DNA of 32,000 bases, taken from Nostoc punctiforme PCC 73102 (GTDB lineage: Bacteria; Cyanobacteriota; Cyanobacteriia; Cyanobacteriales; Nostocaceae). Below, piece by piece: positions 7,777 through 21,334 of the stretch (position 1 is its first letter; each line of letters opens with the position of its first letter). A model generated the notes under the pieces. The model had not been told where the DNA came from. It ran no database searches and worked only from the letters and a program-made list of their open reading frames with translations. The DNA is taken from NCBI RefSeq assembly GCF_000020025.1, contig NC_010628.1, forward strand, positions 690,001 through 722,000, in the 5' to 3' direction. Made by a program: the position numbers and the translations under genes.

Positions 7777-7924
7777 CTGACTTTTCAGGTTATGTGGAAA
7801 AGTCCACCAAAAACCTAACCCCCTAACCTCCTTCCCGACGCGGGAAGGGGGAAAATTCAAAGTCTCTCTCCTTAAAGGAAGAGAGAAATAGAAGAGAGGT
7901 TTTCCAGATGCCGTGAAAAGTCAG
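7777..7924. repeat. MITE-like palindromic repeat element
   Basis: 11-bp inverted termini ctgacttttca (7777-7787) and tgaaaagtcag (7914-7924). Internal hairpins ccttccc-gacgc-gggaagg and ctctctcctt-aaa-ggaagagag. It sits just downstream of the kinase gene. Confidence 0.65.
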
Positions 7925-7966: not shown

Positions 7967-9373
7967 TTAATTCCCTAAAGGGGCTGACTTGGGCAAGCAA
8001 ATAGTAAAACAAGTTCTACCTGGCTGTGATTCAAATGAGAGCGTACCGTGATGACGATTTTCTACAATCCGGCGAACGGTTTCCAAACCAAGTCCAGAAC
8101 CACGCCCCACTGATTTAGTAGTGAAGAAAGGTTCAAAAATGCGGGTTTTGATTTCAGGTGGAATTCCACTACCAGAATCGATGATGTCAATATGGGCAAA
8201 ACGATCGCAATGGTATGTTGTAATTTCCAGCAGTCCCTTACCATCCATCGCATCTATGGCGTTGTCAATTAAGTTCGTCCAGACTTGATTCAGTTCGCTG
8301 CCATAAGCAAGAATTTTAGGAAGGTGTTGATCGTAATTGCGTTGTACTTGGATGCCGCATTTGAGTTTATGAACAAACAATCGCAATGTATCTTCTAAAC
8401 CTTGATGCACATTGACTTCTTGCTGAACGCCTTGATCGAGGTAAGAATATGACTTCATCGCTTGCACAAGTTCGGAAATTCTCTCGGCTCCTCGTAAACC
8501 ATGTTTAATCATTGACATGACTTCAAATGAGAGCGATAGCCAGTGCAATCCCATTTCTCGCAATTCAGTCTCGTCGTTGCGCCAACGTTCCATCATCTTA
8601 TCTAGGGTTTCAACCTCAACACCACCTTCTGCTAAAGGTTCGGCTAATTTCCATGCCTGCTTCACACCATAATCTTCTAACCATTCCAGCAAGACGTTTT
8701 CGCGATCGCTTAATGTCACTGGATCTAGGCGATTATTCAAAATTGCATCATAGCCCTGATCCCGGATTCTCAACCAGTCTTGAGTATGGGCTTCTTCAAC
8801 ATTGCGTTGCCCATAAACTAAGTTCATTCGTTGTAGTTCCAGGATGGCGGCCGGCATTTCCCCTAAAGTCCGAACGAGGGCTGAGGCTGGGTTGTTGAGT
8901 TCATGAGCTAGACCGGCAGAAAGTGTCCCTAAAGCGGCCATCTTTTCCCGTCCCCGAATAAAGGACTCTAGTCCCCGTAGACGACGTTCCATAATGCGGA
9001 AAACCATCCGCTCAAAATTACGACATTCATGGAGCAGTTTACGGAAATCTTCTCCTTTTAATTGATAGAGGTGGCAATTTGTCAATGCCCGCATTGTGAC
9101 AGGTGCAGGTTCATCTGTGAGTACTGGAATTTCACCAAAAAAGGATGGGGCTTCGTGTTGCCCGATGGGAATTTCAACTCCTTCACTGCGGCGGGTGATC
9201 TTGATTTTCCCTTTGACTAAGATAAATAAGCGACATGCAAGGTCTCCCTCATGGGACAACACTTCTCCAGCAGAAAGTTCAACTGTTTGAGCGCGATCGC
9301 AAACCCACTCCAATTGCTCTTGAGAAAGCTGTTGAAACGGGTCTAAGTCGATCAATTCTTCAATACACAACAT
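7967..9373 (-). CDS. cyclic-nucleotide-binding-domain histidine kinase
   Basis: 468 aa. The N-terminal cNMP-binding fold has FFGEIPVL...VTMRALT. H-box GLAHELNNP, N-box NLIDNAIDAM, G1 DSGSGIP, G2 GSGLGL. ATG is preceded by AGGAGG, 31 nt after the upstream gene stop. Confidence 0.9.
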   Translation of the reverse strand: MLCIEELIDLDPFQQLSQEQLEWVCDRAQTVELSAGEVLSHEGDLACRLFILVKGKIKITRRSEGVEIPIGQHEAPSFFGEIPVLTDEPAPVTMRALTNCHLYQLKGEDFRKLLHECRNFERMVFRIMERRLRGLESFIRGREKMAALGTLSAGLAHELNNPASALVRTLGEMPAAILELQRMNLVYGQRNVEEAHTQDWLRIRDQGYDAILNNRLDPVTLSDRENVLLEWLEDYGVKQAWKLAEPLAEGGVEVETLDKMMERWRNDETELREMGLHWLSLSFEVMSMIKHGLRGAERISELVQAMKSYSYLDQGVQQEVNVHQGLEDTLRLFVHKLKCGIQVQRNYDQHLPKILAYGSELNQVWTNLIDNAIDAMDGKGLLEITTYHCDRFAHIDIIDSGSGIPPEIKTRIFEPFFTTKSVGRGSGLGLETVRRIVENRHHGTLSFESQPGRTCFTICLPKSAPLGN

Positions 9374-9404
9374 GAATCAACCTCCTTAGTTTTTCCTGTT
9401 CCAG

Positions 9405-11069
9405 CTAAACATTGCTCAGGTAGCGGTGAACGAATTGAATAGCGATCGAACCTTCACCCACACCGGATGCCACCCGCTTAATTGACCCAGATCGCACATC
9501 TCCGGCTGCAAAGATGCCAGGAACGCTGGATTCTAGCAAGAAAGGTGAGCGTTCCAAAGGCCAACCTGGAGGAGATTTGCCATTTTGCGTTAAGTCGGGG
9601 CCTGTGACGATAAACCCCTGAGTATCGCGTCGAATCACACCATCGAGCCAATCAGTTTTGGGGATAGCACCAATGAAGATGAAAAGCGATCGCGCTGGCA
9701 CGATTTCAGTTTGTCCAGTCTTGCTATGGGCGATCGCAATTTCTTCTAAATGTTCATCTCCCTTCACTTCCACAACGCTGCAACCTGTGCAAACTTGGAT
9801 ATTTGCAGTCGCCGCAATTTGGTCAATCAAGTATTGGGACATACTCAATGAAAGCGACTCGCCCCGCACCAGCATAATCACTTTGCTGGCATACTTAGAA
9901 AAATGCATTGCTGCTTGTCCGGCAGAATTTGCCCCACCTATGAGGTAAACCTCTTCATTGCTACAGGCGATCGCCTCAGTCATGGCAGCACCGTAATAAA
10001 TTCCGGCTCCTGTCAACTTTTCGGCTCCTGGGACATTTAGCCAACGGTAGGAAACGCCGGTTGCAACTAAAAGTGCATGGCAACTAATCTCGCTACCATC
10101 CGCCAATTGCAGAACCCGATAAGGATCTTGCAGCTTAACTCCAGTTACTACTTGAGGAGTGAGAATTTCTACCCCAAATCGCCGCGCCTGGGTGACTCCG
10201 CGCCTAGCCAAATCGCTGCCGCTCAAGCCAACAGGAAACCCCAGATAGTTCTCAATGCGCGAACTCGTGCCTGCTTGTCCTCCTGGTGCTTCACGCTCAA
10301 TTAAAACCGTACTCAATCCTTCAGAAGCGCCATAGACTGCGGCGGCCAGTCCAGCAGGGCCAGCACCGACGATCGCCAAGTCATAAAATGGTCGCTCTGC
10401 CTGAGTTTGCAGTCCAATTTTAGCGGCAATCTCTAAATTAGATGGTTGGATTAATCTGGAACCATCAGGAAACAGCACCAAGGGCAATTGCTGTCTGCCA
10501 TCAGCTTGGGCGTATTCTAGTAATTTGGCTGCATCCGGCTCCAGTTCAATATCTAACCACTTGTAGGGAATCTGATTACGCGCCAGGAAGTCTTTTACCT
10601 GATGGGAAAAAGGCGACCAGCGATTACCAATGACTCGAATCCCTTCAAAGGGTGGGCGGAATCCCGCTAGCCAGTCATCTAGCAAATCATCCAAAACCGG
10701 ATATAATCGCTCTTCTGGTGGATTCCAGGGCTTGAGTAAGTAGTAATCAAGCCTGGCACTATTAATTGATTTAATCGCAGCATCCGTATCTGCATAGGCC
10801 GTCAGCAAAGCACGTTTCGCATCAGGAAAAATGACTTTTGCCTGTTCCAGGAACTCCACACCTCCCATTTGGGGCATTCTTTGATCCACCAAGAATAAAG
10901 CAACTGCTTCATTCCGTAATTTGAGTTGCTGCACCGCGTCCAGAGCGGTAATACCAGAATCTGCCCGAACAATGCGGAAGCGATCGCCATACTGATGCCG
11001 CAAGTCTCGTGACACCGCTTGCAACACTTCTGGATCGTCATCGACGGTTAAAATTGCAGGTTTCGCCAT
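9405..11069 (-). CDS. response regulator receiver fused to a glutaredoxin-like segment and a thioredoxin-reductase-fold FAD-dependent oxidoreductase domain (canonical CxxC motifs absent)
   Basis: 554 aa. REC residues are intact: D10-D12, D62, T90, K113. Residues ~145-220 look glutaredoxin-fold-like, with S-P-F-S where CPYC would sit. The TrxR-fold domain has GAGPAG and GGANSAG dinucleotide motifs and C-terminal GIFAAGDV. A-A-M-T sits at the position aligned to TrxB C-A-T-C. Confidence 0.9.
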   Translation of the reverse strand: MAKPAILTVDDDPEVLQAVSRDLRHQYGDRFRIVRADSGITALDAVQQLKLRNEAVALFLVDQRMPQMGGVEFLEQAKVIFPDAKRALLTAYADTDAAIKSINSARLDYYLLKPWNPPEERLYPVLDDLLDDWLAGFRPPFEGIRVIGNRWSPFSHQVKDFLARNQIPYKWLDIELEPDAAKLLEYAQADGRQQLPLVLFPDGSRLIQPSNLEIAAKIGLQTQAERPFYDLAIVGAGPAGLAAAVYGASEGLSTVLIEREAPGGQAGTSSRIENYLGFPVGLSGSDLARRGVTQARRFGVEILTPQVVTGVKLQDPYRVLQLADGSEISCHALLVATGVSYRWLNVPGAEKLTGAGIYYGAAMTEAIACSNEEVYLIGGANSAGQAAMHFSKYASKVIMLVRGESLSLSMSQYLIDQIAATANIQVCTGCSVVEVKGDEHLEEIAIAHSKTGQTEIVPARSLFIFIGAIPKTDWLDGVIRRDTQGFIVTGPDLTQNGKSPPGWPLERSPFLLESSVPGIFAAGDVRSGSIKRVASGVGEGSIAIQFVHRYLSNV

Positions 11070-11133
11070 AACTACTGTTACTTAACGATTACAGTACTTA
11101 GCTGTTATCTTCAAAAATTTGTCGTTAAAACAT

Positions 11134-11352
11134 CTACTGTCTAACCAGTTGATTTAAACGAAAGTATGCCTCTTCTGGTGTCAGCGCTTCTGATTGACTT
11201 TCATTAGGTATATAAAATACCCAAGTATCTGGAAAGTAATGCACCACAAAACTGGGAATCAGACCCAAACTTACTGCTTGCTTTCCAAGCTTCTCAGCTT
11301 GTTCCTCTAAACCCAGTTGGTCATGAAATGGGTGTTCAGCCATACTTTTCAT
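11134..11352 (-). CDS. small hypothetical protein (72 aa), first gene of the signalling module
   Basis: Track ORF, same strand, 64 nt upstream of the receiver gene. MKSMAEHPFHDQLGLEEQAEKLGKQAVSLGLIPSFVVHYFPDTWVFYIPNESQSEALTPEEAYFRLNQLVRQ. No family recognised. Confidence 0.5.
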   Translation of the reverse strand: MKSMAEHPFHDQLGLEEQAEKLGKQAVSLGLIPSFVVHYFPDTWVFYIPNESQSEALTPEEAYFRLNQLVRQ

Positions 11353-11731: not shown

Positions 11732-11767
11732 AAAAAGAGTAGGGTAGCACAGCCAGCCGTGCTACCC
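11732..11767 (-). terminator. rho-independent terminator candidate downstream of flv2
   Basis: 9-bp perfect stem gggtagcac / gtgctaccc (11742-11750 / 11759-11767) with an 8-nt loop. On the minus strand it is followed after 5 nt by TTTTT (plus-strand AAAAA 11732-11736). It lies about 60 nt after the flv2 stop. Confidence 0.5.
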
Positions 11768-11825
11768 CACCAATGCATAAATTCTTTTGGATAATTTATT
11801 TTTTGGAAGTCCTTACTGGTAACTC

Positions 11826-13713: not shown

Positions 13714-14226
13714 TTAATGGCCATTGTTTTGTATTAATTCAGACTTGGCTCGGCTTCTATAGCGTTTAGATACTTCTTGTTCCGGGTCGATACCTTCAAA
13801 GGTAGGGGGTAGCCAAACTCGGAGAAATAGTAGTACTCCCAGGACTAATAAAAAGGCACAAGTTGCTAAAACTTGACTCCAACTTGTTTCTAAGACACCT
13901 TTAACAATGACTTCTCGCAAAGCAGAAACGATGGAAACTTCAACAGCTACCCCAATAGATACTCGATGTTCTTGCAAGTAAATAATCAACAATCGGAATA
14001 GCTCAACTAATATGAGCAAAAAGAGAATATCAGCAGTAACAGCATGAAAATCTAAAGGTGGAAGTAAGGAGAGAAACATATCTCTCACCTGAAGCACCAT
14101 GAAGCTAAATAAACCGATACACAAAGAAATTACAATTACATCTTGGATAAATTCCAAGCTTCGGACAACACGCCCACGATTGATTTCGTACATGGTAATC
14201 GGGGTATTTTCAACAGATTTATACAT
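13714..14226 (-). CDS. small four-helix membrane protein, Sll0218-like (PsiE-like), middle gene of the flv4-flv2 operon
   Basis: Track ORF 13714-14292, trimmed to ATG 14226 (MYKSVENTPI...) because the upstream codons (LPLPPTPHRRDESRLY) translate a dispersed repeat. Four hydrophobic helices are visible. Its position between the two flv genes matches Synechocystis sll0217-sll0218-sll0219. Confidence 0.75.
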   Translation of the reverse strand: MYKSVENTPITMYEINRGRVVRSLEFIQDVIVISLCIGLFSFMVLQVRDMFLSLLPPLDFHAVTADILFLLILVELFRLLIIYLQEHRVSIGVAVEVSIVSALREVIVKGVLETSWSQVLATCAFLLVLGVLLFLRVWLPPTFEGIDPEQEVSKRYRSRAKSELIQNNGH

Positions 14227-14241
14227 AATTTTTTGGGAGTT

Positions 14242-14300
14242 GTAGAGACGCGATTCATCGCGTCTGTGTGGGGTAGGGGGCAGGGGAAGCAAGGGGAGAA
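14242..14300. repeat. palindromic hairpin repeat plus G-rich heptamer-like run
   Basis: gtagagacgcgat-tc-atcgcgtct (14242-14265) is the exact reverse complement of the copy at 13622-13645. It is followed by gtgtggggtagggggcaggggaagcaaggggag. Confidence 0.8.
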
Positions 14301-15962
14301 TAAGAAATAACTAATGACAAATGACCAGTGACTATTTAATAATGATTGCCAATTTTGCGGTGATGGGCGGCGGTAAGTGCATCTAACTTGGCAACTCTTC
14401 CAGTTTGGACTGTGCTATAAATTACCCAATGATCTCCACAGTCCATGCGGCTAGTGATTTCGCATTCCATATAAGCCAAAGCTTCAGCTAAAACGGGCGA
14501 TTCATTTTTTGCTGGATATGTCTTCACTCCGGCAAATCGGTCTACACCAGGAGCAAAACGCTTGAGGAAATGTTTCATTAATCCTTGATATTTGCCTTCT
14601 TCTAAAACGTTTAGAACGAAGCGATCGCCAACGTGCATCAAAGATTCAATTGCCCGATCTTTGGATACTGCGATCGCAACTCCTAAAGGCTCAAGACTCG
14701 CTTGTGTCACCCAAGAAGCCAACATTGCACTCTGAATTTCTCCTTTTTTGGCAGTGATAATGTATAAGCCTGTGCTAAGACGACCTAAAGCCTTCTCTAG
14801 CTCCGTATTGATAGATTTGATTTGTTTAATGGTGCGATCGCGGTTCAACCATTGACCCAAATCTGTCCCCGCTTCATCACAAAGCTGTTCCGTTGCTTGG
14901 GTAGGAATTTCCTTAACTAAAATAGGTGGAAAGGCTTCAGTTAATCCCAGTTCTTGAAACTTATTGCGTAAAGGATAAATAGGTTCATCTTCTCCACCTC
15001 CCGACTCTAATAAACCAATTGACTGCTTTTTGTGAACAGCAGCTAAAATAGTGCTTAAAGAAGCTTGAGCTATCACCGAAGATTGGGGTGGCATTGCAAT
15101 TACTAAACCAGAAGATTGTGCAACTAATTCTCTAACTTCTTGAGGTTCAGAACTATTGAGAGGAAATAATTCCACTGCTGCGCCTGTTTTCGCACATCCA
15201 TGAGCTATGGTACGGACTAACTGCTCGCTATGCCCGTAATCTTCAACATAAAATAGAGCCACTAAAGTCTCTGTTTTTGCTTGTTCTAAACTCCAGTTTT
15301 GATACCGTCCGAGCCAGTCTGGAATATAGTGTTGTAATAAAGGTCCATGTCCCGTAGCAACTGTTCCTATTTCTAACTTTTCAATCCGCTTTAAAGCTGC
15401 CAAAACAGAGCGGGCATTGGGGCCCATAAGACAATCATAATAATATTGAAAATCTTCCTCAAGTAAGGTGATATTTTCATCATAAGTGTGGTCATCACAG
15501 TAGTGCATTCCAAACACATCACAGGTGTAGAGAGTGCTAGTTTTGTGGTCATAAGTAAAGATTGTGTCAGGCCAGTGTAAGTTGGGTGCAGAGATAAATT
15601 CTAATTCGTGTCCGTTGCCTAAATTTAATCGCTCTCCACTTTTCACCTGCCTTGAATTAAAGGGCTGGTGAACCATATTTTCTAAAAATTGAATAGCTAC
15701 CTTAGCACCAACAACAGTAATGGATGGAGCTAGTTGCAAAATATTTTTTACTAGGCCACTGTGGTCTGGTTCCGTATGGCTAATAATCAAGTAATCTATT
15801 TTAGTCGGATCAATTAATCCCACAAGTATTTCAAGATATAATTGCTCAAACTTGCGGTGAGATGTATCAACTAAGGCAACTTTTTCTCCCTGAATTAAAA
15901 AAGAATTATAAGTCGTACCATTCCGTAGACCAAACTCGACATCAAAACGTTCTCTATCCCAG

Positions 15963-17414
15963 CAATACCGTTGCCAATTTACGAGGGTTCAACACCTGTG
16001 GAAAGGGGATGAATACGTCCCAAAGAAGTGAGCTTGGCAAAAATTTGGGCTAGTAAAATAGGCTCAGGCTTTTGAGGAAGTATTTTTAACATTTCATGAA
16101 CATATCGAAAACCACGGTAATAAGCTTTCAGGTCAATAATGCCAGAACCAGGATTATGTTTACGGAAATCAGCTAGAAGATGATGGGATAAATTGACCAT
16201 AAAGAATGCAATATTAGCAGCATTAGTCACAGCAGTTTGGCTCAGATTCATAAAATCTTCCAAGCCCCAGAATTGCTTGGCATCCCGAAAATTAAACTCG
16301 ATTTGGAAACGAAGCTTGTAATAGTCAATAATTCTGTCAGCCGTCAAATCTAAGTCGCTGGAAAATAAAATTACATGGCTACGTATATTGGCTTTAAGAT
16401 TAGTTTTGACTAAAATAACTACATTGAGAGACTGAGCAAATTCTTTGTGAAGAAGAGTAGCTTGATAAATATCAGTTTGAATTCCATCTTCAATATCACT
16501 TTTACACAAATATTTCTCAGGTAGATTACGGTAGTCTAGTTTTTCCCCGTATTTACGACGAGAACGTTTATTCGAGTCAGGATTTTCATAAGGGATGTAT
16601 AATGATGAATCATGGCGCAGCTTGGAAATTATGTGCAAGTTAACTTGTCGTACCATCTGCAAGGCATTGTTGTTACCAAAATGACCATCTACTACCAAGT
16701 ATGTCAAGGGGATAAAGTTAGCTACTAGCTCAAATAGTGAGTTAATCCTCTTTTTAATTAACAAGAGTTCAGATGTTAATATCACTTCGGTTTTGTTTTT
16801 ATTCTTACTGCCTTTCGGTCGTCCCCGTCCACGTTTCTCTTTAGCTTTTACTTTTTTGATTGGCAAGGTGTTATTTATTTGGGCATCACTTTTAATTACC
16901 TGTTCTATTCCAATCGGAAATGATTGCCTTCCTTCTACGCTTACTAATGACAATACGAAGAAAGATAAACCATTAATTGGTTTACTAGCCAGGCTAGAAA
17001 AAAATCTATCTACTCCGTAAGTTTGCTTCCCCGATTTACTAACTACAACTTCATCTCCTGCAAGCAAATACACATCATTTTTTCGCCACAAATGTTGACG
17101 AAAAAACAGCCAAAACAATGTTGCCCAAGGTATTACTGTAGAAAAAAATCTCCCCATTGTCCGATAGCTACCGCCATCACCTGCCCAACGGGCAATTCCC
17201 AACATCGTGACTCGACCACTTAGAGCTAACATTGCCAGGATAATTTGGTTCAATTGCCGCATCGTTGTCGCGTTTATCTGCGGTAGCAGGCATTGCAGGA
17301 GTGATAAGATATCGGGCATGGGTTGATTGTGGCTTTTGAGTTGTCGTTTGGGAAGACAATAACTCTACTACATCAGCCCTCTCTCTTCACCCTCTGATTT
17401 TGGCTAAGGTATTG
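15963..17414 (-). mobile_element. IS4-superfamily insertion sequence (1452 bp) inserted in flv4
   Basis: About 25-bp imperfect terminal inverted repeats: CAATACCGTTGCCAATTTACGAGGG versus CAATACCTTAGCCAAAATCAGAGGG, about 19 of 25 matching by eye. A perfect 6-bp direct repeat TCCCAG flanks the element at 15957-15962 and 17415-17420. It carries a single transposase ORF. Confidence 0.9.
15979..17319 (-). CDS. DDE transposase, IS4 superfamily (IS4/IS701/IS1634-like)
   Basis: 446 aa, apparently intact. Candidate DDE regions are LLAGDEVVVSK, LVVDGHFGNN and the Y-x2-R-x3-E-x6-K signature (YKLRFQIEFNFRDAK). The stop codon lies inside the terminal inverted repeat. Confidence 0.85.
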   Translation of the reverse strand: MPDILSLLQCLLPQINATTMRQLNQIILAMLALSGRVTMLGIARWAGDGGSYRTMGRFFSTVIPWATLFWLFFRQHLWRKNDVYLLAGDEVVVSKSGKQTYGVDRFFSSLASKPINGLSFFVLSLVSVEGRQSFPIGIEQVIKSDAQINNTLPIKKVKAKEKRGRGRPKGSKNKNKTEVILTSELLLIKKRINSLFELVANFIPLTYLVVDGHFGNNNALQMVRQVNLHIISKLRHDSSLYIPYENPDSNKRSRRKYGEKLDYRNLPEKYLCKSDIEDGIQTDIYQATLLHKEFAQSLNVVILVKTNLKANIRSHVILFSSDLDLTADRIIDYYKLRFQIEFNFRDAKQFWGLEDFMNLSQTAVTNAANIAFFMVNLSHHLLADFRKHNPGSGIIDLKAYYRGFRYVHEMLKILPQKPEPILLAQIFAKLTSLGRIHPLSTGVEPS

Positions 17415-17524
17415 TCCCAGTCTAGACAACGAATAGCAGTTGTTTGAGGAGCAATTTCAACAGTTTCTACTGTCAAACGTCCTGGGTTGGGAGTAACTTG
17501 AGTGGGCTGTATGAGTGCAACCAT

Positions 17525-18719: not shown

Positions 18720-20000
18720 AATGTTATTCAGAAATAAAGTTGAGTAGCTTAAACTGAACTTTCTCCCTGCAAATGTACTACACAACCCTTAAATTTCTGA
18801 TGTATAACTGATGCATATTGTTTACTAGCATCGGCTTAATTAATCATCTATATCAGGAAAGATTTATGGTCATAGATTTATTAGGGAAAGCAATCCAGGC
18901 AATTGCTGGTGCGGGAGTTCCTTCTATAAAAAATAAGCTTGAGCGTAGTGAGATTGTAAGCAAATTATTAAAACAACTTGATCTTTACCCTGAGCATCCA
19001 CCTGCTGATTTTTCTGGTGTATATGTCTATACTGTTGTACAGTACGGGGTTGGAAAACCACATGAAATTTTGGAATTATTTCGGCAGGAAGAAATCAAGC
19101 AGGCTTTCCGTGAAGCATTTGAACAAAATGACCCTTTAATCTTCATCAAAAAAGGTCAAGATTTTATAGATGGGTATGCCTTGGGTGATGAAATCAAAAA
19201 ACTTGGTATTGACCCGCTTCCAGAATATGCTGCTTTTGCTATGGCTTTTATTGAGGTTGCCAATAGCACACGCAAACCATCAGAAGTTTTAAGAGATCGA
19301 AAGCTTGAGACTATAAATCAAAATATATCAATTATTCAAGAGCAGTTATCTAGACTAAAAGAACCAAAGGAAATTCTACTTGAGTTAGCTATACAGTCAC
19401 GAACTTATCAAGAACTTCAGCCAGCAGATGAGTCAAAAAATGAAAGAATTGGGATATTTATATTAGCACAGCAAATGAGTGGGTGGTTTGAAACTCTAGG
19501 ATATAAGTTTGATAGACATAAGGTAGAAGAAGAGAAATTTTTCGAGTGGATCATTAATATTCCAGCACGGCGAGGATACGACCGCATCTTTGTGCGTGGT
19601 GTTGAGCGTGAAGGAGGGTTAAGTGATGTTCAATCTTTACGAAAAGCTGTGATGAGCATAAGACAAAAGAAGCTTGGCTAGTCGCTGCTCGCAGGATTAG
19701 TCCAGCAGCTCGCAATGAAGTGAAAAAGGAAGAAAATCAAGATATCTTCTGCTATACCTTTGACGAACTACTAGATGAACAAGCTGACTTTAGCAAATAC
19801 TTAGACTGGCTAGAAGCTGAGGTTAAGCGTAAGGGTATTGACAGAATGTATGTTCCTCTTGCTTGTATTAAAGAAGAATATGATCCTGTGACTCAAGAAA
19901 AACTGGGGGTTAGTCGATACAACGCAGATGATGGTTGGATTGAAGGCTACATTGATCACTGGCTAAACGATCGGGCTAAAGAGCATATCTCAATACTAGG

Positions 20001-21334
20001 GAGTTATGTAAAAATAAATTGAACAATTAACTGACTACTTTGGGTTTGATAATATAGTTCCACTCACCATGAAAAGAATTTCGTTCGATTGCGATAGTAT
20101 CAAGCTCTTGGTCTGTAACCTTGATTCCCGTTTTGTAGAGATTTGGATCTAATCTAGCTTCAACTTCTAATCCTTGTGTGGTGGTAGTATTGCGAATTAG
20201 ATTAATCACAACTTGCAAGCTAGTTAATGGTCTGCCTCGCCAGTTTTGGGTAATGTGACAAAACAAGCGATGCTCAATCTTATTCCATTTACTTGTGCCT
20301 GGAGGAAAATGACACACATGAATAGTTTTACCAGTATCAGTTGCTAATTCTTGTAACTTCAATTTCCACAATCGTGAGCGATAACTATTGCTACCACCGC
20401 AATCAGCCGTAATCATTATATGCTCACTGCTGGGATAAACTTGTTTACCCATTGAGTACCACCAATGACGAATAGACTCGACTGCAAACTCTGCGGTATC
20501 GTGGTCAATGCCAACATTTACCCATCCTTGATTTGAGGTTAAGTCATAAATTCCGTAGGGAATTGCCTTGCCCAACTTGGGGTCAACAAAATCATGCATT
20601 TTCACCTCAATTGGCTGTTCCTTTTCACACCACTCGGTTCCAGAATTTTTAAAATCTCCAATTAATTCTTTTTTTTTGTATCAACTGAAATTACGGGGGT
20701 TCGTTCTGGGATTGAAAGTGCAAGACTTGGTTGGAAATATGTAAAAACTGATCATCTCTATCTGGATGAGATGAGCCATCACGGGTTTTACGATTTGATT
20801 GTAAGCTGTAGCCAAGCGATTCAAGTAAGTTATAAACACTTTTAGGACTAGTCCTATGTCCCCCAATGTTTAATGCCGCAGCCAGTTTCACAACACTTTT
20901 AGAAGTCCATTTTAGAGGAGATTCTGGGTCTCCCAGTGTCACTGGTTCAATCAGCGATTCTAAATCTGATAGCAGCATTGCGTCTTTTTCTTCAAGTAGT
21001 TTACGTCCAGCACCTGACGAACGAATTCGATTACTATCATCATTCGAGGTTTTTTCCCCCGAAGCGTCTAACAATAACCGTATCCCAGCATGGATTGTAG
21101 TCCGGGATAGTCCAGTTGCGAGCGCAACCTGACTCACGCCTCCCCAGCCCAGGCTTCGGGCTTCAATTGCTGCCCAAATACGCCGTGTTTTCTCATTCAA
21201 ATAAGGCGATAACGAATCGTACTTGTCTTGAATGCTTTCTACTACCTGCTTATCAGACATATAAGCCTTTAATTCGGTTACATTCTGATCATCTTACCAT
21301 TCAGCAAATTGTTCAAGTTATTTTTACATGATGC
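20001..21334 (-). mobile_element. ISAzo13-like insertion sequence (1334 bp) inserted in the NACHT Walker A region
   Basis: About 33-bp imperfect terminal inverted repeats sharing ATGTAAAAATAA-N-TTGAACAATT. A 5-bp direct repeat CTAGG flanks the element at 19996-20000 and 21335-21339. The host reading frame is restored on in-silico excision. Confidence 0.85.
20027..21260 (-). pseudogene. ISAzo13-family DDE transposase, split by a 1-nt frameshift
   Basis: Track ORFs 20691-21260 (N-terminal HTH part) and 20027-20605 (C-terminal part). The C-terminal frame is actually open upstream as ...VISVDTKKKELIGDFKNSGTEW.... Family hallmarks are present: DTKKKE, PYGIYD, HFPPGTSKWNKIEHRLF, NWRGRPL. The frames switch at the C5 run (plus-strand G5 at 20695-20699). 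Confidence 0.8.

Follow-up and report, generated by a model that had tools for sequence, protein, structure and literature searches.

Response regulators in which a receiver gates an attached enzyme include CheB, PleD/WspR, and RpfG. The fusion of a receiver to a flavoprotein of thioredoxin reductase (TrxR) type is already listed as the 'TrxB' class of response regulators in census tables (PMC9953108), and SCO7297/SCO7298 of Streptomyces coelicolor are listed as a TrxB-type pair (PMC9739842). Expression data show induction of SCO7298 (trxB3) by polysulfide (PMC9952706) and under acid shock (PMC2631018), and a review of cyanobacterial thioredoxin systems leaves the fused regulator unmentioned (PMC9025218). 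No biochemical or genetic function for the TrxB class was found in the literature searched. Here, we analyze a TrxB-type response regulator and its neighboring histidine kinase, encoded in a 32,000-nucleotide (nt) stretch of the Nostoc punctiforme PCC 73102 genome (NC_010628.1, positions 690,001 to 722,000 of the forward strand; this whole stretch is called the window, and all positions are given in its numbering). The regulator lacks the cysteines of both redox centers expected from its folds, and its partner kinase carries a sensor domain of the CAP family; neither property of the TrxB class is described in the literature found.

A protein that is probably related has been assayed. ATII-TrxR, a 552-amino-acid (aa) metagenomic protein with a Crp/cNMP domain at residues 13-146 and a TrxB region at residues 234-522, was purified as an FAD-containing dimer and used both NADPH (Km 5.2 μM, kcat 9.0 /s) and NADH (Km 4.2 μM, kcat 1.7 /s) (PMC6544261). 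Values were also reported for DTNB (Km 98 μM, kcat 5.6 /s) and, in an insulin assay, for its cognate thioredoxin (Km 1.0 μM, kcat 28 /s); the protein was classed as a high-Mr TrxR, Cys206-Cys223 and Cys376-Cys467 were named as its redox centers, and a CxxC motif was unmentioned (PMC6544261). An earlier note on this DNA, made from the sequence alone, knew of no characterized member of the architecture, which holds for receiver-fused proteins but not for sensor-fused ones, given the assays of ATII-TrxR (PMC6544261).

Nostoc sp. FACHB-133, Nostoc sp. TCL240-02, and N. muscorum FACHB-395 encode proteins with 98% identity to the Nostoc regulator, and in several Nostoc strains such proteins are labeled 'FAD-dependent oxidoreductase'. 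Its features are as follows.

9405 to 11069, minus strand: 554-aa response regulator consisting of a receiver, a glutaredoxin-fold domain, and a TrxR-fold FAD/NAD(P)H domain, a 'TrxB-type' response regulator (open reading frame (ORF), Pfam, NCBIfam)
10716 to 11054, minus strand: receiver, residues 6-118, with D10, D11, D12, D62, T90, and K113 (Pfam PF00072 Response_reg, E 1e-12)
10416 to 10640, minus strand: glutaredoxin-fold domain, residues ~144-218 (sub-threshold Pfam and TIGR02200 matches, AlphaFold2 (AF2), Foldseek)
9414 to 10385, minus strand: TrxR-fold FAD/NAD(P)H domain, residues 229-552 (Pyr_redox_2, and phmmer matches to TrxR structures)
9978 to 9992, minus strand: G360-A-A-M-T364, equivalent to the TrxR C-A-T-C site, no cysteine (HMMER alignments to 7jyp, 4gcm, 5uwy, and 7aaw; MAFFT)
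9963 to 9965, minus strand: C369 (in 'EAIAC'), on the same helix as the CxxC-equivalent site and five to six residues past the second-cysteine position
9861 to 9869, minus strand: V401-R402-G403, in place of the TrxR H-R-R 2'-phosphate site (MAFFT)
9780 to 9791, minus strand: C427-T-G-C430, lineage-specific and not a family feature

The C-terminal domain has the two-domain TrxR fold. Residues 229-540 match Pfam Pyr_redox_2 (E 7e-33), the TrxR structure 7jyp is matched at E 3e-49, and identity to TrxRs is 30-40% across ~320 residues; FAD and NAD(P)H dinucleotide motifs of the TIGR01292 type are both present. When the protein was aligned by HMMER to four solved TrxRs and by MAFFT to E. coli TrxB (the result agreeing with the HMMER alignments to Protein Data Bank (PDB) entries), the two TrxR cysteines, C135 and C138 in the E. 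coli enzyme, where they lie on the NADPH domain beside the flavin, fell on G360 and on M363/T364. The earlier note had aligned A-A-M-T (9989 to 9978) by hand with the TrxB C-A-T-C. The absence of cysteine stands, as no CxxC is found among G-A-A-M-T by proper alignment, but the hand alignment was one residue off at the first cysteine because of a one-residue insertion at the site. Its reading of V-R-G at the NADPH-specifying H-R-R was borne out by the alignment. The regulator scored 219.6 bits against the TIGR01292 equivalog for NADPH-thioredoxin reductase, below the cutoff of 343.45. Together, the missing cysteines and the TIGR01292 score support the proposal that this protein is unlikely to be a classical NADPH-thioredoxin reductase.

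The domains ahead of the flavoprotein were analyzed in the same way. The receiver is intact, as had been claimed: the acidic pocket, phospho-acceptor Asp, Thr, and Lys of response regulators are all present, with a kinase gene alongside, and D10, D11, D12, D62, T90, and K113 are kept in essentially all of 82 orthologues (one is gapped at positions 10-12, and five have E at position 12). The segment that follows the receiver had been described as glutaredoxin-fold-like. Its Pfam Glutaredoxin match (residues 153-198) is sub-threshold (20 bits, where 22.9 is required; E 8e-4), and the match to TIGR02200 (mycoredoxin) is likewise below cutoff. An AF2 model of isolated residues 119-228 had a predicted local distance difference test (pLDDT) score of 84.6 and a beta-alpha-beta-alpha-beta-beta-alpha topology, and its top Foldseek matches in the PDB were mycoredoxin-1, archaeal and clostridial glutaredoxins, and NrdH (2lqo, 3ic4, 7c12, and 4fiw; prob 1.00, TM to target 0.68-0.88); the glutaredoxin domains of thioredoxin-glutathione reductases (TGR) were also among its structural neighbors. 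The glutaredoxin-like fold is thereby borne out structurally. The segment has the fold of glutaredoxin, NrdH, and mycoredoxin but not the active-site CxxC or CxxS that they carry at the N-terminal end of helix 1, as S152-P-F-S155 occupies the CPYC position (10616 to 10605, minus strand), just as the earlier note had read it. Across the family, the consensus at this site is W-S-x-x-S-H-E, with a single cysteine appearing only sporadically.

To place the regulator among its relatives, 1.84 billion cluster representatives were searched exhaustively, and from the top 150 matches (all at least 351 bits) those of at least 400 aa were aligned with E. coli TrxB. Every aligned representative with an intact region has G-V-[YF]-Y-G-A-x-x-[ST]-E-A at the CxxC site, and (L)VRG occupies the HRR position family-wide in these alignments. 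Neither TrxR CxxC position holds a cysteine in the regulator, in the aligned family representatives, or in the 82 orthologues. The residues that flank the site, Y359 and E365, are invariant in the 82 orthologues, as are G360 and R402, and E365 aligns to the position that we take to be acid-base Asp139 of E. coli TrxR. The cofactor motif types GxGxxG, GGQ, GGxNSAGQ, and GD are kept, and G235/G237/G240, G263-G264-Q265, G378/N381/Q385, and G523-D524 are invariant in 43 divergent members. Judged from these alignments, the loss of cysteines at both centers is a family-wide trait. Because both CxxC centers are lost throughout the family, the classical path from flavin to enzyme dithiol to thioredoxin is impossible. 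Since the thiols are lost while the cofactor sites are strictly kept, the domain looks like a working flavoenzyme with other chemistry and not like a decaying pseudo-enzyme.

Two other cysteine sites in the domain were considered. The earlier note had pointed to C-T-G-C as a possible alternative redox center; the motif is present (9791 to 9780), but C427 occurs in 8 and C430 in 10 of the 82 orthologues, all of them close cyanobacterial relatives, and both are absent from distant representatives. C427/C430 was rejected as a relocated redox center because the pair is not conserved. Of the 82 orthologues, 63 retain C369, as do most sensor-fused relatives, but its conservation is incomplete: the remaining 19 orthologues carry Tyr (13), Val, Met, Thr, or Ala.

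Relatives of the regulator were then located by scanning genomes with a pattern, each GTDB species being represented by one genome. At least 595 of these genomes encoded relatives, and the loci of the best 80 full-length receiver-type members were studied; they span about ten phyla, including Cyanobacteria, Acidobacteriota, Chloroflexota, Gemmatimonadota, Bacteroidota, Actinomycetota, Pseudomonadota, Planctomycetota, and Dormibacterota. In 73 of these 80 loci, a homologue of the window kinase adjoins the regulator (tblastn with the kinase core; 35-94% identity over near full length), usually 2-30 nt downstream and, in Bacteroidota and Gemmatimonadota, directly upstream. Pfam analysis of 70 of these adjacent kinases found cNMP_binding in 68 and HATPase_c in 69. 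The earlier note had asked for a conservation survey of a three-gene module; the kinase-regulator pair is conserved, whereas its third gene, described below, is not. From these results, we conclude that the regulator and kinase are real, intact, and conserved genes, with a pattern of motifs far beyond chance, and that the conserved unit consists of these two genes, which appear to be a cognate pair on evidence as strong as genome context allows.

All-against-all clustering of the ORFs flanking 82 loci yielded only two recurrent neighbors, the kinase and a small zinc-finger protein. The other clusters were dismissed as antisense shadow ORFs, generic ABC/SDR genes, or lineage-restricted neighbors (at most 8 loci). 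The second recurrent neighbor is a Cys/His-rich protein of 84-116 aa with a UBP-type zinc finger (zf-UBP, PF02148, E 1e-12 to 1e-15), whose gene directly adjoins the pair on the same strand, in varying positions, in 20 of 81 loci that represent at least six phyla (examples are L009:11130-11381, L020:7707-7976, L055:9663-9932, and L073:11140-11487). The window and the Nostoc loci lack this protein. One could speculate that this zinc-thiolate protein is a partner or substrate of the flavoprotein. In locus L048, a large membrane protein carries zf-UBP as a C-terminal fusion. The regulator of locus L009, from a contig labeled 'uncultured Chloroflexia bacterium' (CAWKKX010000065.1), is 70% identical to the Nostoc protein, as close as cyanobacterial orthologues, which suggests a mis-binned contig or recent transfer.

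The kinase in the window has the following features.

7967 to 9373, minus strand: 468-aa cytoplasmic histidine kinase with a CAP-family sensor, an H-box, and HATPase_c (Pfam)
9029 to 9283, minus strand: cNMP_binding-family domain, residues 31-115 (Pfam PF00027, E 3e-20)
8903 to 8905, minus strand: H157 of 'GLAHELNNP', a histidine predicted to accept the phosphate and invariant across the 70 kinases aligned
7988 to 8296, minus strand: HATPase_c, residues 360-462 (Pfam PF02518, E 2e-24)

The earlier note described this protein as a cyclic-nucleotide-binding domain joined to a complete HisKA/HATPase core. The sensor domain (72.5 bits against a PF00027 gathering threshold of 27.5), the H-box, and HATPase_c were confirmed, and the N, G1, F, and G2 boxes are present ('NLIDNAIDA', 'DSGSGI', 'FEPFFTTK', and 'GSGLGL', respectively), but Pfam HisKA has no match in the window kinase; it is matched in 42 of the 70 orthologues. 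About 200 residues separate H157 from the ATPase domain (window 8296-8905, kinase residues ~157-360), roughly 100 residues more than in typical HisKA kinases, and an apparently helical extra segment, kept in orthologues, seems to be inserted between them.

The kinase had also been called cNMP-sensing, which our analysis does not support. The phosphate-binding cassette of its sensor (9086-9142, minus strand) reads F-F-G-E-I-P-V-L-T-D-E-P-A-P-V-T-M-R-A and departs from the G-E...R-[ST]-A pattern of cAMP/cGMP sensors: set against E72, R82, and S83 of CAP, the Glu remains, Ala stands in for the Arg that contacts the cyclic phosphate, and Pro replaces the Ser. Among the 70 partner kinases, the cassette Arg is retained in 6, all from Chloroflexota, and the Glu in 28. 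Many members of the CRP/FNR superfamily bind other ligands or none. As the cassette Arg is mostly absent and members of this superfamily often bind other ligands, the sensor probably responds to a ligand other than canonical cAMP/cGMP. The sensors nearest to that of the kinase are those of two proteins, P0169 and P0245, in which a sensor is fused to the effector itself (E 1e-18, compared with 2e-8 for E. coli CAP), and these share with it a similar N-terminal motif and a non-canonical cassette.

Such fused forms are common among the representatives. Many of those of ~550 aa align with the regulator only from residue ~140, and their first ~130 residues are cNMP_binding and not a receiver by Pfam. 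The effector module (residues ~140-552) is 44-51% identical in forms that are fused to cNMP_binding, carry EF-hands, or stand alone; in P0169 it is 51% identical to the query, closer than in most receiver-type members. Other arrangements include a receiver, effector, and C-terminal cNMP_binding (P0125, 714 aa), an effector with C-terminal EF-hands (P0250, 707 aa), and a bare effector of about 410-430 aa (several representatives, P0203/P0210/P0212). Because it is fused behind input domains (cNMP_binding, EF-hand) in one-component forms, the module occupies an output position. The simplest reading of these domain arrangements is that the glutaredoxin-fold plus TrxR-fold module would be an output placed under a CAP-family sensor, either in cis or through a kinase-receiver relay.

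Comparison with known flavoproteins places the regulator apart from each of them. With low-Mr TrxB (TIGR01292; E. coli 1TDE/1F6M and PDB 7JYP), it shares the two-domain FAD/NAD(P)H fold, the cofactor motifs, and an acidic residue after the active-site helix (E365), but it lacks CxxC, has VRG for HRR, and carries an extra N-terminal receiver and glutaredoxin-fold domain. AhpF and TGR/NTRC-type fusions likewise join a thioredoxin or glutaredoxin fold to a TrxR-type flavoprotein, N-terminally in AhpF; in those proteins, however, electrons pass through a CxxC in both modules, whereas both centers are absent here, and AhpF has tandem N-terminal thioredoxin folds where the regulator has one glutaredoxin-fold domain. 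The AhpF model TIGR03140 matched residues 221-543 at 153.5 bits (cutoff 502.9). The TrxR-type ferredoxin-NADP+ reductases (FNRs; 2ZBW, 3LZW) and the bacillithiol-disulfide reductase YpdA/Bdr show that a TrxR fold can function in the absence of an enzyme disulfide, with electrons going from NAD(P)H through FAD to an external acceptor, but they lack a receiver and a glutaredoxin-fold domain; matches to such FNRs were weak (2zbw, 3lzw, and 6gas, E 1e-13 to 1e-16), and the YpdA/Bdr model TIGR04018 scored 65 bits (cutoff 339.9). TrxR-type FNR, DDOR, and FFTR have a C-terminal extension with an aromatic residue that stacks on the flavin. In FFTR, this flavin-stacking extension was described by Buey et al. 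(PMC8154056). The 554-aa regulator has no such extension, because its alignments to TrxRs reach residues 547-553, where the TrxR chain ends. By these defining features, the regulator falls outside TrxB, AhpF, glutaredoxin, TrxR-type FNR/DDOR/FFTR, and YpdA; its closest functional parallel is a CxxC-less TrxR-fold enzyme that obeys the logic of an enzyme-output response regulator.

The cNMP_binding-fused proteins annotated as 'thioredoxin-disulfide reductase', among them ATII-TrxR and a protein of Cupriavidus metallidurans CH34, are close in sequence and domain content. Their effector is 39-51% identical over residues ~140-552, they have the GVYY...EA and LVRG motifs, and their sensor is related to that of the Nostoc kinase; they differ in carrying their own sensor in cis, as one-component proteins, whereas the Nostoc sensor resides on a separate kinase. 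The C. metallidurans chromid homologue (L001:5884-7665) is 39% identical over residues 77-554 and has GVYYWASPVEAKLC at the CxxC site. Its C234, C251, and C404 match ATII-TrxR cysteines 206, 223, and 376 at an offset of 28, and the fourth cysteine is 5 residues off; this protein may be the WP_011516654.1 that the paper cites.

With moderate confidence, we propose that the regulator is a phosphorylation-gated NAD(P)H flavoenzyme with an external electron acceptor, working within a self-contained two-component pair. The cytoplasmic kinase would read a small-molecule signal through its CAP/CRP-family domain, autophosphorylate on H157, and pass the phosphate to D62 of the regulator. The output would not be DNA binding but an FAD/NAD(P)H enzyme of low-Mr TrxR fold behind an integral glutaredoxin-fold domain. 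Phosphorylation of the receiver may alter the packing of the receiver and glutaredoxin-fold domain against the flavoprotein, through dimerization or the NAD(P)H-domain rotation typical of the fold, so that NAD(P)H oxidation and electron delivery to the acceptor would be switched on or off. The acceptor could reach the flavin directly through the space vacated by the missing disulfide; a quinone, O2, an external disulfide or polysulfide, and a partner such as the zf-UBP protein are candidates. We infer catalytic activity, gating, and direct flavin-to-acceptor transfer. Of the functions suggested by the earlier note, a phosphorylation-gated flavoenzyme remains the best reading, given that the receiver is kept in orthologues and the cofactor motifs are invariant.

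Several points weigh against this proposal. The gating mechanism is one that we infer, and the literature searched held census tables and expression data for receiver-fused members, with no functional study among them. The acceptor Asp is absent in several distant receiver-type representatives (P0127, P0131, P0133, and P0137, for example), so phosphorylation is not the universal switch in the wider family. A full-length AF2 model of the regulator, built from a 31-sequence alignment of 77-98% identity, had a mean pLDDT of 61 and a predicted TM score (pTM) of 0.45; a second profile search for diverse sequences again returned only cyanobacterial proteins, at 64-78% identity. The model was discarded as too poor for domain interfaces or cysteine-flavin distances; of the two models, that of the isolated glutaredoxin-fold segment was usable. 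The cysteine positions and domain coordinates given above suggest that ATII-TrxR is probably a CxxC-less member of the family. If it is indeed a member, its assays speak for FAD binding and for the use of both NADPH and NADH, which suits the change from HRR to VRG, and, if its reported reduction of thioredoxin and DTNB (PMC6544261) is real, a thioredoxin-reductase function might be served by a non-classical route.

The surroundings of the pair had suggested another role. The module follows flv2 on the same strand after 473 nt, and the earlier note took this position, next to the flv4-flv2 electron-sink operon, as a sign of a link to photosynthetic redox control. This was not borne out. In 80 related loci, among them 12 cyanobacterial ones and a locus of Nostoc sp. 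ATCC 43529, no homologue of flv2, flv4, or the PsiE-like gene was found within 8 kb. Nostoc sp. TCL240-02 has a 98%-identical regulator and keeps the downstream synteny (Rieske, YjbQ/UPF0047, aminotransferase, TPR, and AraC genes), but upstream it carries genes for a stand-alone receiver and two phycobilisome genes, with no flv. In the window, the flv operon is parted from the module by the following element.

11738 to 11771, minus strand: strong terminator-like hairpin with a 15-bp stem and a T-rich tail, CTTTTTCGTC, 55 nt past the flv2 stop

The flv4-like flavodiiron gene itself (window 14336-17524, minus strand) is interrupted by an insertion sequence (IS) of ~1.45 kb with a DDE_5 transposase ORF (17319 to 15979). 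Its N-terminal ~40 codons (...RCLDWD) stop near 17415, the frame picks up near 15966 (WDRERFDVEFGLRNGTTYNSF...), and CTGGGA stands at both junctions, which resembles a target-site duplication; in this strain, flv4 has probably lost its function. We therefore rejected the flv linkage on the basis of the 80-locus survey, the TCL240-02 synteny, the hairpin, and the IS in flv4, and conclude that the adjacency is a strain-specific rearrangement that gives no functional hint. Between the flavodiiron genes, a small membrane protein (13714-14292, minus strand) matches Pfam PsiE (E 1e-13); in the flv4-2 operon of Synechocystis, this place is taken by Sll0218.

These data bear on three other explanations. 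One is that the regulator belongs with the TrxR-type ferredoxin/flavodoxin:NAD(P)+ oxidoreductases and is tied to the flv4-flv2 electron sink. TrxR-type FNRs also lack CxxC and match it weakly (E 1e-13 to 1e-16), and the module does follow flv2 at 473 nt on the same strand, but the 80 loci without flv2/flv4/PsiE-like genes within 8 kb, the different upstream genes of TCL240-02 despite its 98%-identical regulator and kept downstream synteny, the terminator-like hairpin after flv2, and the interrupted flv4 all speak against the flv link, which is already largely refuted. The regulator also lacks the flavin-stacking C-terminal extension of those families, and members of its family occur mostly in non-photosynthetic phyla, so we regard this explanation as very improbable. 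It is also unlikely, though less so, that the protein truly reduces thioredoxin or another disulfide with NAD(P)H, as its automatic annotation has it, under control by phosphorylation and along a non-classical route (C369, cysteines of a partner, or transfer straight from flavin to disulfide). For ATII-TrxR, reduction of DTNB (5.6 /s) and of thioredoxin (28 /s) was reported, but that study reports no cysteine mutants (PMC6544261). Loss of NADPH at 340 nm would also register plain oxidase or diaphorase activity. The presence of C369 in 63 of 82 orthologues and most sensor-fused forms would suit such a reductase, yet it is substituted in the other 19 and, by helix geometry, would lie one to two turns past the flavin-proximal position. 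The invariant E365, at what is presumably the Asp139 position, and the polysulfide induction of S. coelicolor trxB3 (SCO7298) (PMC9952706) favor it as well; set against them are the absence of cysteine at either CxxC position across the family and the TIGR01292 score of 219.6 bits (cutoff 343).

The remaining explanation makes the TrxR-fold domain a sensor or scaffold for the NAD(P)H/NAD(P)+ ratio or flavin redox state, with phosphorylation-dependent protein interaction or feedback on the kinase (as a phosphate sink) as the output. Loss of both ancestral catalytic centers, the recurrent zf-UBP neighbor (20 of 81 loci) as a possible binding partner, and the degenerate receivers of some distant members would fit. 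In the fused proteins, however, the module lies behind ligand-binding inputs, that is, in an output position; neither the FAD/NAD(P)H motifs nor E365 vary across about ten phyla, as catalysis predicts; and ATII-TrxR turned over NAD(P)H (PMC6544261). We consider a sensor or scaffold improbable on balance, and the phosphorylation-gated flavoenzyme is the reading that we retain.

The earlier note had grouped the pair with a third gene as a module. Three closely spaced minus-strand ORFs were confirmed, at 11352 to 11134 (72 aa), 11069 to 9405 (the 554-aa regulator), and 9373 to 7967 (the 468-aa kinase), separated by 64 and 31 nt, respectively, with a Shine-Dalgarno site ahead of the kinase. The other elements of this layout are as follows.

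11134 to 11352, minus strand: 72-aa ORF, a small protein of Nostoc loci only
9387 to 9381, minus strand: AAGGAGG Shine-Dalgarno sequence, 7 nt ahead of the kinase ATG (sequence reading)
7863 to 7888, minus strand: terminator-like hairpin, ~80 nt past the kinase stop

The true product of the 72-aa ORF is probably a 69-aa protein that begins MAEHPF, with its start at 11343. It has no Pfam or NCBIfam match. The 69-aa version lies directly 5' of the regulator in four Nostoc loci (L002, L003, L082, and L083) and is an annotated gene in Nostoc sp. TCL240-02; the copies are of constant length, and their substitutions fall chiefly at third codon positions (16 of 28 in one example), so it is probably a real gene. 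No counterpart was found 5' of the regulator in related loci of other cyanobacterial genera or other phyla. On this gene-neighborhood survey, a module of three genes was rejected beyond Nostoc, and the small ORF is a lineage-specific addition outside the conserved module.

Elsewhere in the window, an ISAzo13-family (DDE_Tnp_ISAZ013) transposase at 20027-21260 (minus strand) is split into two ORFs that cover profile positions 1-90 (20691 to 21260) and 122-308 (20027 to 20605), a frameshifted or decayed IS copy. A 287-aa ORF at 18818-19681 (plus strand) has NACHT-associated NNH5 and inactive restriction-endonuclease-like NA-iREase1 domains, and no NACHT ATPase was detected within it; it could represent a STAND/NACHT conflict-system gene in truncated or split form. 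Neither Rfam nor tRNA scanning of the window gave a match.

This protein family is large and mis-annotated. Hundreds of genomes label it 'thioredoxin-disulfide reductase' or 'thioredoxin reductase (NADPH)', names that cannot denote the classical mechanism because both CxxC centers are absent family-wide. For cyanobacterial physiology, the proposed tie to the flv4-flv2 photoprotection operon fails. The comparative data turn one odd gene into a testable system, with a kinase-regulator pair, an effector that takes several inputs, and a zf-UBP candidate. More tentatively, and with doubt outweighing confidence, we suggest a widespread, unrecognized class of signal-gated flavoenzymes, spread over about ten phyla and at least 595 species-level genomes, with chemistry unlike that of characterized TrxR-fold enzymes and with a CAP-family switch for ligands other than cAMP/cGMP that acts in cis or by phosphorelay. 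Possible chemistries for such a class include direct flavin reduction of a disulfide, of polysulfide, or of the zinc-thiolate zf-UBP protein, or a regulated NAD(P)H oxidase with reactive oxygen species as its output. Identifying the substrate of the flavoenzyme and the ligand of the sensor would add a new class of enzymatic output to two-component signaling, and might reveal a regulated redox reaction shared across soil, aquatic, and photosynthetic bacteria.

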